Origin: Candidatus Micrarchaeota archaeon
GTDB taxonomy: Archaea > Micrarchaeota > Micrarchaeia > Micrarchaeales > Micrarchaeaceae
DNA: 64,000 bases
Reading direction: 5' to 3'
Assembly (NCBI GenBank): GCA_021817565.1
Contig: JAKAUP010000007.1
Coordinates: forward strand, 152,497-216,496
Shown one piece after another: positions 15,848-20,426 of the stretch. The notes beneath the pieces are model-generated. The model did no database searches and was not told the DNA's origin. It saw only the letters and a list, made by a program, of their open reading frames with translations. Position numbers and translations under genes: made by a program. Each line of letters begins with the position of its first letter. Position 1 is the stretch's first letter.

Positions 15848-16189
15848 ATGATGAGAATGATAGGCAAAGAGGCAAAAGAGAAAGGATATGCCAACATAGA
15901 GCAGGTTTACGAGATACTTAAGTCAAGAAAACCAGCTGAGATGAAATATGAACAGCAGGTGGTGCTTGATTACGTTACTAAGTTCAAGGCAAACAAGAAG
16001 ACATACCAAAAAGTGAGTTCCATACTGGAAAGCACAGAGCTGCCGGAGTCGATAAAGTCAAAGATACTCGAGATACTGCCAATGAACGAACCACTGCTCA
16101 AGCAGATCCTTGCAAGCGAGAAGATCTCGTTGGACGACGAGAAAAGAGCCGAACTGCTAAAGGCGATAAACGAGACGCGTGAAGCTTAG
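15848..16189 (+). CDS. rpoF: DNA-directed RNA polymerase subunit Rpo4/F
   Basis: 113-aa helical protein (..VYEILKSRKPAEMKYEQQVVLDYVTKFK...) lying directly upstream of a DUF655 gene, which is the conserved archaeal neighbourhood. Confidence 0.7.
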   Translation: MMRMIGKEAKEKGYANIEQVYEILKSRKPAEMKYEQQVVLDYVTKFKANKKTYQKVSSILESTELPESIKSKILEILPMNEPLLKQILASEKISLDDEKRAELLKAINETREA

Positions 16190-16213
16190 TGTTTTGATGC
16201 TTAACAATAAGGT

Positions 16214-16816
16214 TTGGACATGTACGAGGAGAAGAAGGAGGAATACGCAATTGTGCTTGACTTTATGTCTACTGGCAAGTCATTCTCTACCAGGGCTGAA
16301 CCTATCACCCAGATAATGGGCGAGGACTTCTTTACACTTTTGGAAGCGGTGCCGAAGGAAGGCATTGTGCTCTCGATAGGCGAGAGGGTATACATAGGAA
16401 AGGATAACAGGGAGAAGATATCACTCATAAAATCAAGAATCCCATTCTCACAGCTTACCGAAACAGCAAAATCGACGCTACCAGAGGCGATACACGGAGT
16501 TATAACAGCGCATGAGCAGCGGTTCTCAGACTTCTTCAACAACGCAGGTCCGCTCAACATACGCGAACACTCGCTCGAGCTGCTCCCGGGTATAGGTAAG
16601 AAGAACCTGAATGCGATAATAAATGCAAGGAAGGAAAAGAAGTTTGAAGGCTTTGCGGACATATCCGCGCGCGTTTCATTCATACAGGATCCAGCAAAGC
16701 TCATATCGCGAAGGATAATGACCGAGCTTGAAGGAGGAGAGCGTTTCTACCTATTTACAAAACCGTACCAACCGAGACCGCCGTACCAACCGAGATCCGG
16801 CCCATACAGGCATTGA
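16214..16816 (+). CDS. DUF655-family protein (predicted RNA/nucleotide-binding, HhH C-terminal part)
   Basis: EEYAIVLDFMSTGKSF...AEPITQIMGEDFFTLLEAVPKEG...FFNNAGPLNIREHSLELLPGIGKK is the DUF655 pattern. There is an unusual PYQPRPPYQPRSGPY tail. Confidence 0.75.
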   Translation: MDMYEEKKEEYAIVLDFMSTGKSFSTRAEPITQIMGEDFFTLLEAVPKEGIVLSIGERVYIGKDNREKISLIKSRIPFSQLTETAKSTLPEAIHGVITAHEQRFSDFFNNAGPLNIREHSLELLPGIGKKNLNAIINARKEKKFEGFADISARVSFIQDPAKLISRRIMTELEGGERFYLFTKPYQPRPPYQPRSGPYRH

Positions 16817-17101
16817 TCATACCTTCTCTATATGGGAAGCATGCACTACCAGCTTCTTTTTCGCGCCCATCGTAATAACCTCCACAACATACCCTCTCTT
16901 TCTCCTCTCCGTTATGACACCTATCTTTCCCTTGTAGCGCGGATGCGGTATGTTCCTCACATTGCCCTTTGGGACTATAGCCACACGCTGTCCAATCTCA
17001 AAGTCCTTTATAACGTCCCTCACGCGCTGGGCCGAAGGCCTGTGGTGCCTTGAGAGGTTTCTGCTTCTTTTCGAAAAAAGACCTTTTGAACGCTTTACCA
17101 T
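16817..17101 (-). CDS. rpl21e: 50S ribosomal protein L21e
   Basis: MVKRSKGLFSKRSRNLSRHHR...FEIGQRVAIVPKGNVRNIPHPRYKGKIGVITERRKRGYVVEV is the classic L21e sequence. Confidence 0.9.
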   Translation of the reverse strand: MVKRSKGLFSKRSRNLSRHHRPSAQRVRDVIKDFEIGQRVAIVPKGNVRNIPHPRYKGKIGVITERRKRGYVVEVITMGAKKKLVVHASHIEKV

Positions 17102-17136: not shown

Positions 17137-17148
17137 AATATATTTATA
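17137..17148 (+). promoter_or_regulatory. TATA-like box for the TBP-like gene (leaderless geometry)
   Basis: aatatatttata is centred ~29 nt upstream of GTG 17172, inside the 70-nt divergent spacer shared with rpl21e. Confidence 0.3.
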
Positions 17149-17171
17149 GATTGGGTTATTAAAAGGTAAGG

Positions 17172-17501
17172 GTGTTTTTTACGTCAAACGATGGCAAGAA
17201 AGAGATAAAGCTGAAACCAACATACAGGATAGTGAACATAGTCGTCAAAGCGAATCTGGCAACAGACCTCGACCTATACCTTATGGGTAGGCTCTCTTTC
17301 GATATAGATTACGAGCCGGAGCAGTTTCCGGGCGCGATATTCAGGGTGCACGATCCGAAGTCAACCATACTCATCTTCAAAAACGGGAAGATCATATGCA
17401 CCGGCACGAAAAAGATGGCAGACGTGAAACGCTCAGTGCAGCATGCGGTAGACCTGGTAAACAAGTACCTGGCCCAGAACCCAAGGCCGGCTTCAAAGTA
17501 A
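17172..17501 (+). CDS. Single-repeat TATA-box-binding-protein (TBP) domain protein, 109 codons
   Basis: [82 protein letters not shown] aligns end to end with one TBP repeat, closest to repeat 2 of Pyrococcus TBP ([35 protein letters not shown]). The start is GTG. An in-frame TAA lies at 17160-17162, so no N-terminal extension is possible. Confidence 0.7.
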   Translation: [109 protein letters not shown]

Positions 17502-17606
17502 CTTTCTGTAAAAGGGATAATAAGCAAGGTTTAAATATTGATATGCTTATAACCTTTACGTCGCTATATTGAAAAATATGGCAGACACCCTATTCTCATC
17601 CACCCA

Positions 17607-17626
17607 GAGGCGTATTTTTACGCCTC
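17607..17626. terminator. Perfect 8-bp hairpin between the convergent TBP-like and trmI genes
   Basis: gaggcgta-tttt-tacgcctc lies 14 nt beyond the trmI stop, with a T-rich tract following on the plus strand. Its function is not demonstrated. Confidence 0.2.
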
Positions 17627-17639
17627 AACTCTTTTCCTT

Positions 17640-18218
17640 CTATTTCGAAATGTTTTTTATGCAGAATACGAGGTAGGCGGTATGCCATACCCCTTTTGTG
17701 GAAGGCCTTACCCCTGCCTCTCTGACAAGCATATCCCTTATTATGACCTCTAATGCGCATATCTCGACAAAACCGCACTTTTCAGCTTTAAGCACGAACT
17801 TCTTCATCTGTTCCGTATGGGGAAGATATCCGGCAAGCGTACCGCCTTCCTTCAAAGCCTTCCATGCATGCCTTACAGCTTTCTCAGAGTTGGGCATGTC
17901 CAGCACAACAAGATCCACATCCCTCTCACGTATGCCTTTAGTGATGTCTGCATGCCTTATCTCTACATTATCCAGGCCGAACATGTTTATATTCCTTTGC
18001 GCAATCTCTATGAAGTCGTCCCTTATCTCATAGGTATATACCTTTTTTGATATGCGCGCAAGCGAAACGGCCATCCATCCGCTTCCAGTGCCCGCATCAA
18101 CGCAGACGCTATCCTTCCCTACTCCAGAGTAGCTTATTATTATACCTATGTCCTTCGGAAGTATTATCTGCGGTCCTCTCTTCATCCTCTTATATATCCC
18201 TGGCCTAAGCACATCCAA
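17640..18218 (-). CDS. trmI: tRNA (adenine-N1)-methyltransferase TrmI (Gcd14 family)
   Basis: RGPQIILPKDIGIIISYSGV...VCVDAGTGSGWMAVSLA...VVLDMP is the TrmI/Gcd14 pattern. Its start abuts the topoisomerase stop. Confidence 0.8.
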   Translation of the reverse strand: MDVLRPGIYKRMKRGPQIILPKDIGIIISYSGVGKDSVCVDAGTGSGWMAVSLARISKKVYTYEIRDDFIEIAQRNINMFGLDNVEIRHADITKGIRERDVDLVVLDMPNSEKAVRHAWKALKEGGTLAGYLPHTEQMKKFVLKAEKCGFVEICALEVIIRDMLVREAGVRPSTKGVWHTAYLVFCIKNISK

Positions 18219-20426
18219 TCAATCAGCCTTTTTTCTGGTCTTACCTGCCTTCTTGCCATCTCTTTTCGGCTTTCCTGCGTTTTTCTTCTTCCCCTTCACA
18301 ATCCTTCCCTTTCCATCATCGCCCATGCTCTTTTCCTCTACAGCTTTTTTTGGAGCTGCCCCTTCTTTCTTCGGGAAAATGATTGTGTGTTCGGTACATG
18401 CAGGATCAAGATCTATATCGAATGGCGGCTTCCCCTTCCTTATAATCCTCACAAATGGTGTATTGCACGCCTTGCATACGTTCCCAGTAGGCATTATCTT
18501 GGCATTTTGCGGAAGGGGATATGTGTTCGTGCACTTCGGATATGCGGAACACGCAACGAACTGCTTGCCTATCTTCGACCTCCTTATAACGAGCGCGCTC
18601 CCGCATTTCGGACATTTCCCGACAGTGTTCGCCTCCATGAAGTTCTCTCCCATGTCCTTTGCGATATTCTCCTTGTTCCTGTCAAACATCTCTATCGCTT
18701 TAAGGAGTATCTCCTTTCCCTCGGCTACAACCTCCTCCTCTTTCTTCTCTCCCTTTGATATGCGTTCCATATCCTCTTCCAGCTGGCGTGTCGTCTCCAC
18801 GCTCATTATCATTCCGCAGTTCCTGGAGAGGGCGTTGTATACCGACATGCCGAACTTCGTGACTCTTATCTGGCCTCCCTCTATGTAATTCCTCCTGAAA
18901 AGGGTATCTATTATGCTCGCCCTTGTCGCCTTCGTTCCGAGATTCATCCGTTCCAGTTCTGCTATCAGTCCTGCCTTTGTAAACCTCTTTTTTGGTTTTG
19001 TCTCCAGTTCCTCCATCTTAACCTCTTCACATGCGCACCTTTCTGACTCGACGAACTGCTCCATCGCCTTTCCAATCTCGTTTTCCGTGCTTACAAAATG
19101 GTATATTTCCATCCATCCTTTCTTAGTGACGAGTGTTGCCGAAGCAGAATACTTCTCCTTTCCGATATCCGAGTTCATCGAAAGTCTTAATGTATCGGCA
19201 GGTTCAGCAAAGCATGATAAGAACCTTCTTGTTATCAGGTCATAGAGTGCCTCTTCCTCCTTAGATAACTTTTTGGGCTCTATGCCTGTAGGGAATATCG
19301 CCGGGTGCGCCTCATCAGCCTTCTTTCCCTGCACAGGCCTGAATGCCCTTCTCGAGATTATCCCTTCCGCATATTTTTTGTACGCATTGTTCTTGCCTAT
19401 TTCCTCAATTATCCTTTGCAATCCAAGCGTAGGCGGAAGCTTCTGCGAGGACGTCCTTGGATACGATATGTAAGACCTCTCATAGAGCGCCTGTGCGGTC
19501 GCAAGCGTCGCAGAAGGATCCATTCTCAAAACCCTGCTTGCCTCAAGCTGCAACGAGGTAAGGTCGAATGCAGGGTAAGGATACCTCTTTACCTCTTCCC
19601 TGCTGATCTTCGTTATCACCGCAGCATTCTTGTTTCTTAGCGACTCTCCGTATGCCGTATCCGCATCCTCCTTCTTGAATATCTCCCCGCGGTCGTTTGT
19701 GAACCTCACTCCTTTGATTTCGGCGTAGACTTTCCAATACGGCTCCGGCTTGAAGTTACTTATCTCAATCTCCCTTGCGGCAAGCACAGACAACGTCGGT
19801 CCTTGTACCCTGCCTATGCTGAGCGACTTCCCCTTCTCGTATTTTCTAAGCGCGCTGGTCAGTGCCCTGCTCAAGTTTATCCCCCACAGCCAGTCTATAA
19901 CGTGCCTGGCCTCCCCTGCCTTGAAATTCAGCGTATCCGTTTCCCCGGCAGTATCATAAGATTCTATCAGGTCTGGTATGGTGGTCGTGGAAAATTTCAT
20001 GCGCCTTGCCTTATTCCCGAAACGTTCAGGATCTTCGCCAGTAACGCTCTTTATGATGTTCGTGCCTATTACCGTACCTTCGAGGTCATAGTCGCAGGCA
20101 TTGATAAAAGAGTCGCACTTTGCCCCAACCTCCTTTATCACATCAAGATAGCCCTTTGTGAAATACGATGATTTGTTTATCTTGTAAGACGGTTCCCATT
20201 TCACGTCCAACACTGGATAGTCCTTCTTATCTCCGTTCTGGCTTATGGTAAACAGGTGGCCGACTGCAGCAACCACATATATATCCCCTTCCGGCCTCCT
20301 TAAGTAGTAATACCCTACATGCCCGCTTCCCATCCTTTTCTGCTGGCTGTTTCCCAGCGCAATCGCTATTCTGAGCGCCACGCTGGGCTTTTCGGCAATG
20401 AGCAAAATATTATGCGGCATTCTCAT
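18219..20426 (-). CDS. topA: Type IA DNA topoisomerase (TopA) with C-terminal zinc ribbons and a lysine-rich tail
   Basis: Toprim start LLIAEKPSVALRIA, a catalytic region YISYPRTSSQKL, zinc ribbons CPKCGSALVIRRSKIGKQFVACSAYPKC and CKACNTPF, and a tail GKKKNAGKPKRDGKKAGKTRKKAD. Confidence 0.9.
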   Translation of the reverse strand: MRMPHNILLIAEKPSVALRIAIALGNSQQKRMGSGHVGYYYLRRPEGDIYVVAAVGHLFTISQNGDKKDYPVLDVKWEPSYKINKSSYFTKGYLDVIKEVGAKCDSFINACDYDLEGTVIGTNIIKSVTGEDPERFGNKARRMKFSTTTIPDLIESYDTAGETDTLNFKAGEARHVIDWLWGINLSRALTSALRKYEKGKSLSIGRVQGPTLSVLAAREIEISNFKPEPYWKVYAEIKGVRFTNDRGEIFKKEDADTAYGESLRNKNAAVITKISREEVKRYPYPAFDLTSLQLEASRVLRMDPSATLATAQALYERSYISYPRTSSQKLPPTLGLQRIIEEIGKNNAYKKYAEGIISRRAFRPVQGKKADEAHPAIFPTGIEPKKLSKEEEALYDLITRRFLSCFAEPADTLRLSMNSDIGKEKYSASATLVTKKGWMEIYHFVSTENEIGKAMEQFVESERCACEEVKMEELETKPKKRFTKAGLIAELERMNLGTKATRASIIDTLFRRNYIEGGQIRVTKFGMSVYNALSRNCGMIMSVETTRQLEEDMERISKGEKKEEEVVAEGKEILLKAIEMFDRNKENIAKDMGENFMEANTVGKCPKCGSALVIRRSKIGKQFVACSAYPKCTNTYPLPQNAKIMPTGNVCKACNTPFVRIIRKGKPPFDIDLDPACTEHTIIFPKKEGAAPKKAVEEKSMGDDGKGRIVKGKKKNAGKPKRDGKKAGKTRKKAD

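Follow-up and report, generated by a model that had tools for sequence, protein, structure and literature searches.

A gene of only 109 codons in a 64,000-nucleotide stretch of DNA from Candidatus Micrarchaeota archaeon (contig JAKAUP010000007.1; the whole stretch is referred to as the window) encodes a TATA-binding protein (TBP) that consists of one lobe. TBP is the textbook example of a pseudo-symmetric protein, and it is thought to have descended from a homodimer of single lobes; we know of no natural organism that runs its transcription on single-lobe TBP homodimers. The window gene belongs to a conserved single-lobe family, here called family A, that occupies the locus at which related archaea carry their two-lobe TBP, and a second single-lobe family, family B, is encoded at another locus. 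As judged from the sequences, we propose with a probability of about 45% that the window protein is lobe A of a TBP assembled from separately encoded lobes, that its partner is lobe B, and that the two act as an A·B heterodimer, in other words as a two-gene TBP.

The gene and the elements that delimit it are as follows.
17172-17501, plus strand: family-A single-lobe TBP gene from the open reading frame (ORF) listing; 109 amino acids, GTG start, TAA stop at 17499-17501.
17160-17162, plus strand: in-frame TAA, read from the sequence, that closes the frame three codons 5' of the start.
17502-17639, no strand: non-coding spacer of 138 nucleotides (nt) 3' of the stop, in which a six-frame scan with hidden Markov models (HMMs) found no trace of a second lobe.

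An earlier interpretation of this DNA, hereafter the sequence-only reading, described the gene as a stand-alone single TBP repeat, and the domain count agrees: Pfam gives a single match to PF00352 (TBP) with an E-value of 5.8e-23, in which residues 18-99 cover profile positions 2-85 of 85. This also disposes of the concern that an HMM alignment might reveal something other than a TBP repeat. Against the full-length TBP models of NCBIfam the window protein reaches at most 86 bits, far from their cut-offs of 181-347 bits, as would be expected of half a TBP. Among solved archaeal TBPs, the two lobes of 1mp9 align to it about equally well (66 and 53 bits), and its identity to bona fide TBP lobes is 36-44%. 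The AlphaFold2 monomer model (mean predicted local distance difference test score, pLDDT, 85) superposes on one TBP lobe with a root-mean-square deviation of ~1.0 Å over 77-78 residues. The protein is thus a TBP by fold, residues and locus, with the lobe sequence and fold characteristic of PF00352 and arCOG01764, but it lacks the architecture of the family, namely two tandem lobes in one polypeptide of ~180 amino acids.

Other enzymes that act on nucleic acids also use the TBP fold singly (PMC3597702), and the window protein shows a weak, sub-threshold Pfam match to DUF3378, the N-terminal domain of RNase HIII (E 0.034). The protein could on these grounds be a single-lobe nucleic-acid binder with a role outside transcription initiation, much as the TBP-like domains in DNA glycosylases and RNase HIII are. 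We regard this as very improbable in view of the identity to bona fide lobes given above, of the Foldseek search, in which all 44 matches with E <= 0.001 were TBPs while glycosylase and RNase HIII matches had E > 0.1, of the full conservation of the TBP-specific Phe pair, Asn, Val, Thr and stirrup, and of the position of the gene at the TBP locus.

The further claim that no second repeat can be encoded alongside was upheld as well. The TAA at 17160-17162 closes the frame upstream, the divergent rpl21e begins only 70 nt away, the 138-nt spacer downstream ends in a convergent gene, and the six-frame HMM scan detected no further TBP-like segment in any frame of the window. Truncated ORFs are common in metagenome-assembled genomes (MAGs), and an assembly artefact or a decaying pseudogene of a two-lobe TBP might therefore be suspected, although nothing specific points to either. 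Contig DAHVPR010000004.1 of NCBI assembly GCA_027318185.1 and two further, independent ENA assemblies contain the gene and its neighbourhood in identical form, and because three independent assemblies carry the identical gene, the deletion or frameshift that would have undone the sequence-only reading is excluded. The same architecture in 80 of 80 species loci, a ratio of non-synonymous to synonymous substitution (dN/dS) of ~0.16 with saturation at synonymous sites, and the presence of a family-A gene in the closed genome A_DKE make an artefact or pseudogene hardly credible.

To place the gene in its genomic context, the upstream neighbours are needed.
16817-17101, minus strand: divergent rpl21e (PF01157; start codon at 17099-17101), the synteny anchor of the ancestral TBP locus.
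15848-16816, plus strand: RpoF/Rpb4-like gene and DUF655 gene (ORF listing), part of the conserved rpl21e-rpoF-DUF655 block.

The start of rpl21e and the TBP gene are separated by an intergenic gap of 70 nt, and an rpl21e homologue lies divergently upstream of the TBP gene in 72 of the 80 species loci inspected. The closest two-lobe TBPs (178-193 amino acids, 45-64% identity per lobe) carry the labels Micrarchaeota, Anstonellales and Iainarchaeota, and in all five cases checked (L004, L005, L089, L091, L092) they too are divergent from rpl21e-rpoF-DUF655. Since family A shares the rpl21e locus with two-lobe TBPs, it is the positional orthologue of canonical TBP.

The two-lobe relatives (for instance P0003, P0264, P0273 and P0351) resemble the window gene not only in the rpl21e locus but also in the signature FPGAI...FKNGK. 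They differ from it in having both lobes in one chain, and these lobes are unusually alike: inter-lobe identity in 124 related two-lobe TBPs ranges from 45 to 89% with a median of 61%, as compared with 42-55% in three solved archaeal TBPs. Many such two-lobe relatives were also recovered by a search seeded with a Mancarchaeum-type family-A protein. The lobes of P0273 and P0272 are 85-89% identical in protein, and those of P0273, encoded at the rpl21e locus (L089:3577-4125), share 201 nt at 99% identity, which at the level of sequence indicates gene conversion or a very recent internal duplication. Because the lobes of these relatives are near-identical, a near-symmetric saddle evidently works in the clade. 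Collapse to one lobe should also be easy, because recombination between such directly repeated segments would excise one whole lobe and no more, without a shift of frame or of position. The single-lobe state is best seen as probably derived from a two-lobe gene and not as a relic.

With regard to conservation within family A, three segments of the gene stand out.
17211-17252, plus strand: N-terminal arm and strand S1 (L14 to residue 27), with N22 and V24, marked by conservation.
17307-17339, plus strand: stirrup motif (D46 to residue 56), with F52 as the first DNA-kinking Phe (nt 17325-17327), invariant in 112 of 112 members.
17370-17405, plus strand: segment from L67 to residue 78, with the second kinking Phe, F69 (nt 17376-17378), and T77, marked by conservation.

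In the arm and S1, the residues L14, P16, T17, Y18, N22 and V24 are kept in 90-100% of 112 family-A members. The stirrup, DYEPEQFPG, contains YEPEQFPG, the motif of the C-terminal lobe of Pyrococcus woesei TBP and the predicted binding surface for TFB/TFIIB; the stirrup does not vary in family B either, nor in the two lobes of the related two-lobe TBPs. L67, F69, G72, K73, I75, C76, T77 and G78 do not vary in family A, and altogether 23 alignment columns are invariant across the 112 sequences. The window protein has the complete DNA-contact set (N22, V24, F52, F69, T77), which is 97-100% conserved in the family; these contacts (minor-groove Asn, Val and Thr, intercalating Phe) were assigned by alignment to solved TBPs. 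The conservation that a TBP-like function would call for, in the DNA-kinking Phe residues and in a stirrup of the TFB-binding type, is thus present throughout family A. Where synonymous sites are unsaturated, the median dN/dS is 0.16, and as far as sequence comparison can tell the family is under strong constraint.

The window protein itself belongs to this family as a divergent member. It has the typical length (~100-120 amino acids), the single lobe, the LKPTY...ENIVA motif and the divergent position relative to rpl21e; it scores 171.7 bits on the family-A HMM versus 111.9 bits on the family-B HMM, and it lies inside the family-A clade, which is monophyletic in 97 of 100 neighbour-joining bootstraps (all trees were neighbour-joining trees on ~90 columns). 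Identity to other members is 48-66%, except for P0002 at 89%.

Family A is widespread. The protein search returned 285 relatives, and 112 of the best 120 are 96-128 amino acids long and named Micrarchaeota, Micrarchaeia or ARMAN. A scan of one genome per prokaryotic species gave 549 confirmed matches, of which the best 80 were inspected at the level of the locus. These 80 all carry family A and all come from Micrarchaeota-type MAGs, some of them mislabelled, and from the closed genome of Ca. Micrarchaeum A_DKE (L009), whose family-A protein is WP_203134431.1. Every one of the 80 loci is single-lobe, with stop-to-stop frames of 105-169 amino acids and one TBP domain each, and no second TBP-like ORF was present within 10 kb either side (1.16 Mb in total). 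Family A thus spans hundreds of Micrarchaeota species.

Database annotation of the family deserves some remarks. In NCBI, MAGs whose gene and synteny are of the Micrarchaeota type go under the names Candidatus Marsarchaeota, Candidatus Acidoferrum sp. or Acidiferrales bacterium (L011, L014, L022, L033, L078, L083 and others). The proteins are mostly named "hypothetical protein" there, because they fall below the cut-offs for full-length TBP, and automated surveys can in consequence score such genomes as lacking TBP or misjudge their completeness. One MAG, CAYNNI01, appeared to hold two family-A genes (L080, L085). Paralogy is the less probable explanation here and bin contamination the more probable one, since both genes lie at contig ends and one of the two proteins is identical to that of another species-representative MAG (L084, MAG DAHXNT01).

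An exhaustive search of cluster representatives uncovered further one-lobe proteins, among them P0446 and P0483, which share 49-63% identity with family-A proteins. These two belong to a second family with a conserved context of its own, in which a gene for an FAD-dependent (geranylgeranyl-reductase-like) protein is divergent and a gene for a GT4 glycosyltransferase is convergent.
L093:7110-7481, L095:1100-1483, L106:9917-10435 and ~40 more among L097-L176: family-B loci, recognised by HMM and context.

A metagenome scan was seeded with P0446 and P0483, and its best 80 loci were taken; all but one are single-lobe. When sorted by neighbours (counts that also include four loci fetched earlier), 26 lie beside rpl21e, 39 have the reductase/glycosyltransferase context and 18 are without a nearby marker gene. 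The difference between the family-A and family-B HMM scores follows this context closely, being +19 to +49 bits beside rpl21e and -32 to -77 bits beside the reductase and glycosyltransferase genes, and divides the metagenome loci into ~40 of family A and 43 of family B. Family B has one PF00352 domain and retains N22, V24, F52, F69 and T77 together with the same stirrup. In the neighbour-joining tree, A (91%) and B (93%) form sister groups (76% bootstrap), and there was no grouping of A with N-terminal lobes (N-lobes) or of B with C-terminal lobes (C-lobes). Since the lobes of the two-lobe relatives resemble A more, B appears to be the more derived paralogue. Some family-B proteins are longer: the copy at L106 carries Lys/Pro-rich N- and C-terminal tails in a stop-to-stop frame of 173 amino acids, and P0446 and P0483 are N-terminally extended.

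Both families occur together on the JGI contig Ga0307374_10000001 (586,870 bp), where A (P0054) lies at ~148.5 kb and B at ~510 kb, 361 kb apart, and the two proteins are 46% identical. In sample ERZ1669247, the A contig and the B contig have matching G+C contents (43.3% and 43.5%) and coverages (4.4 and 5.0). More generally, A and B are roughly equal in number and are found in the same metagenomes. The closed Micrarchaeota genome Mia14 is reported to contain two arCOG01764 (TBP) proteins, compared with one in most other DPANN genomes (Golyshina 2017, PMC5498576, Supplementary Data 4). The supplementary tables of Krause 2022 (A_DKE), Vazquez-Campos 2021, Li 2021 and Sakai 2022 yielded nothing usable on TBP.

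A single-lobe protein could also be an accessory paralogue beside a canonical two-lobe TBP encoded elsewhere in the genome, where it would act as a modulator, for example as a competitor for TFB or DNA or as a partner of another factor, in the manner of halobacterial TbpA. Full-length TBPs accompany all of the published single-lobe proteins, both TbpA and the Thermococcales family (PMC3597702), and full-length TBPs labelled Micrarchaeota do exist in the databases. However, the five such proteins that were checked all lie at the rpl21e locus of family A, and they are hence orthologues in other lineages and not co-residents. No full-length TBP among the matches listed sits on the long contigs that carry A, and should the two arCOG01764 proteins of Mia14 be A and B, a third one is missing from that closed genome. 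A co-resident two-lobe TBP was not seen in the window, within 10 kb of the 80 loci or among the matches listed; complete genomes were not scanned, and the absence is judged from synteny, from the full-length matches listed, which lie off the A-carrying contigs, and from the Mia14 count. Family A is, moreover, conserved more strongly than would be expected of an accessory factor. Taken together, we find an accessory role unlikely.

If the window protein serves as the TBP of its host, it must do so as a non-covalent dimer, because the TBP saddle needs two lobes; this requirement is deduced from the fold and the DNA-contact set. Two lobes would pair through their S1 strands to give the usual ten-stranded saddle, and each lobe would insert F52 and F69 into the TATA box and bend the DNA. 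Either stirrup could then offer a surface for TFB binding, and the direction of the promoter would be set by contacts between TFB and the B recognition element (BRE), as in other archaea. According to Bell et al. 1999, as cited in PMC7289017, it is TFB and BRE, and not an asymmetry of TBP, that orient the archaeal pre-initiation complex. Because TFB-BRE contacts set the polarity, promoter polarity need not rest on an asymmetric TBP, and related lineages with their near-symmetric two-lobe TBPs lead to the same conclusion.

The most likely partner in such a dimer would be lobe B, the product of the paralogous gene at another place in the genome. The patterns of conservation in the two families are complementary: in family A the N-terminal arm is conserved (L14, P16, T17, Y18) and the end after Y99 variable, and in family B it is the arm that varies and the extension following Y99 that is kept (V100 in 93%, I101 in 89%). 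The pseudo-symmetry of TBP would place the N-terminal arm of each lobe next to where helix H2 of its partner ends, and the complementary conservation hints at a contact between A and B.

The alternative is that A is self-sufficient and forms a symmetric saddle as an A2 homodimer that serves as the general TBP, with B as a second, specialised TBP that forms its own homodimer or mixes in occasionally, in keeping with the several TBPs that other archaea have. A number of results fit this possibility, and we give it a tentative place as a serious contender. It is A that sits at the ancestral TBP locus, its signature leans neither to the N-lobe nor to the C-lobe (see below), it lies closer than B to the lobes of the two-lobe relatives, and its gene is unlinked to that of B. 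The sisterhood of A and B is what would be expected if the duplication had been preceded by a one-lobe gene and thus by a homodimer that worked. The near-symmetric two-lobe relatives (median 61%, up to 89%; P0273) imply that a symmetric saddle is tolerated in the clade, and the dependence of pre-initiation complex orientation on TFB and BRE, as cited in PMC7289017, would remove the need for two different lobes. On the other hand, B is about as common as A and equally conserved, which is unexpected for a dispensable paralogue in genomes of ~1 Mb, and the complementary conservation of the A arm and the B extension is more easily explained by an A·B contact. On balance the A·B heterodimer is slightly favoured over the A2 homodimer.

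It should be underlined that several observations weigh against the two-gene TBP. Both lobes of the two-lobe relatives are closer to A than to B, and A may be sufficient without a partner. The two genes are not linked, each has its own promoter, and Ga0307374_10000001 is the only case in which both were found directly on the same contig. No B gene lies within the 64-kb window, and for the window genome the presence of B and the absence of a two-lobe TBP are presumed. Mia14 is not among the best 80 of the 549 genome loci, where a Mancarchaeum sp. MAG does appear (L012), and it was also absent from the search seeded with the Mancarchaeum-type family-A protein. Either Mia14 is outside the collection or its genes are different, and its two arCOG01764 proteins are candidates for A and B. 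Among the two-lobe proteins there was no fusion of an A-like with a B-like lobe (Rosetta-stone test). Finally, when family A was compared with N- and C-lobe profiles made from the related two-lobe TBPs, the log-odds were -2.1 ± 1.6 bits, with true lobes at +14.8 and -11.2. With profiles from 71 typical archaeal TBPs they were 0.0 ± 1.5 bits for A and -1.3 ± 1.9 bits for B, with true lobes at +11.4 and -15.7. With signatures as neutral as these, a plain split of one gene into two halves does not account for A and B.

The specific assignment of A as the N-lobe and B as the C-lobe was considered and rejected, since the HMM log-odds are neutral for both and the tree pairs A with B. Single positions (18, 21, 88 and 89) do lean in that direction, but they are too few for a conclusion. 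A search for a "C-half" partner with a C-terminal-lobe profile gave no single-lobe match among the matches listed, which are dominated by partial two-lobe proteins of 138-161 amino acids.

Of the three roles that the sequence-only reading had offered for the gene, the homodimer and the half of a split TBP are thus both still in play. The third, a paralogue with a different role, has fared worst, because the gene holds the ancestral TBP locus and keeps the DNA-contact and stirrup residues. The associated idea that the protein recapitulates the pre-duplication ancestor survives in part: the single-lobe state would re-enact that ancestor, but having probably derived from a two-lobe TBP it would not have preserved it.

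The history behind a two-gene TBP may have run as follows. A two-lobe TBP beside rpl21e would have had its lobes held near-identical through gene conversion; the two-lobe gene would then have collapsed to one lobe; and the one-lobe gene would have been duplicated, which left A in place and put B at a new locus. We consider it probable that a Micrarchaeota clade of order level or larger has no covalent two-lobe TBP and that its transcription has relied on single-lobe dimers, be it A·B, A2 or both, since such a collapse and duplication.

With respect to known systems, canonical archaeal TBPs (P. woesei 1AIS, S. acidocaldarius 1MP9, M. jannaschii 2Z8U) share with the window protein the lobe fold, the DNA-contact residues and the YEPEQFPG stirrup. 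They consist of two linked lobes (~180 amino acids), whereas the window protein has one lobe of 109 amino acids without N- or C-lobe specialisation. Halobacterial TbpA, as described in the literature, is also a stand-alone TBP-like lobe; it clusters with genuine TBP lobes but is non-essential and occurs beside several full-length TBPs (Brindefalk et al. 2013, PMC3597702). The window gene, in contrast, holds the ancestral locus of TBP, and its clade showed no co-resident two-lobe TBP. The monopartite TBP-domain proteins of Thermococcales (~91-97 amino acids), by their published description, also have one TBP-fold domain, and they are strongly diverged, form a separate cluster and occur beside normal TBPs (PMC3597702, Table 3); the window protein, with its E-value for PF00352, does not show such divergence. 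Single-lobe versions of TBP are mentioned in passing by Ravarani et al. 2020 (PMC7221094). Split informational genes in DPANN archaea (N. equitans, Micrarchaeota) are reviewed in PMC6349945, with TBP not among them. As in those cases, what is one chain in relatives corresponds here to two unlinked genes, A and B, but these look like duplicates of one collapsed lobe and not like N- and C-terminal pieces. We found no description of a single-lobe TBP system in the literature on Micrarchaeota and other DPANN archaea. Family A is therefore set apart from the published single-lobe cases by its canonical locus, its occurrence in hundreds of species, its pairing with family B and the fact that no co-resident two-lobe TBP was seen.

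A clade that has replaced the covalent two-lobe TBP by single-lobe dimers would represent a natural reversal and partial replay of the ancient duplication that made TBP. Provided that the clade truly lacks a two-lobe TBP, it supplies natural proteins with which to test the binding and bending of TATA boxes and the recruitment of TFB by a non-covalent dimer, and allows promoter polarity to be tested with stirrups that are identical or that differ as those of A and B do. It would also offer, within one clade, a graded series from 99%-identical lobes through a single lobe to a duplicated single lobe, which would show these architectures interconverting.

Two elements around the start of the gene concern its expression.
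17143-17148, plus strand: TATA-like box TTTATA, 23 nt 5' of the GTG start, read from the sequence; a promoter function is presumed.
17171-17174, plus strand: GGTG motif that contains the start codon, a conserved motif in related loci.

The sequence-only reading had credited the gene with its own TATA-like box, and the spacing indeed appears to fit a leaderless or very short-leader transcript. A/T hexamers in related loci are mostly found 21-28 nt 5' of the conserved GTG. This GTG, mostly as GGTG, stands 5-7 nt 5' of an ATG start in 71 of 81 family-A loci (the window and L007-L088), a Shine-Dalgarno-like spacing. Because the equivalent of this ATG in the window reads ACG (17181-17183), GTG is the only usable in-frame start 5' of the N-terminal arm, and a point mutation may have made the window gene leaderless.

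Among the two-lobe relatives and other TBPs found in the searches, some have unusual architectures. Three or four TBP lobes are present in one chain in P0371 (272 amino acids), P0379 (702 amino acids), P0450 (329 amino acids) and P0372 (376 amino acids). P0371 has two near-identical N-type lobes followed by one C-type lobe, and P0372 resembles a tandem-repeated eukaryotic TBP core, which may be an assembly artefact. At the other extreme, many apparently complete TBPs of only 154-161 amino acids are encoded on long contigs, among them P0183 (154 amino acids, contig of 938,934 bp), P0178 and P0144, and some are labelled Woesearchaeota. These would be compact two-lobe TBPs, nearly without linker or tails, and many of them touch DUF3378.

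The downstream neighbours of the window gene are the following.
17640-18218, minus strand: GCD14-type methyltransferase gene, convergent (ORF listing).
18219-20426, minus strand: gene for a type IA topoisomerase of 735 amino acids with Toprim, Topoisom_bac and zinc-ribbon domains.

This pair of genes is kept 3' of the family-A gene in the window, at L001 and at L177 (Ga0307374_10000001). The topoisomerase of the window ends in a strongly Lys-rich tail (…KGKKKNAGKPKRDGKKAGKTRKKAD).

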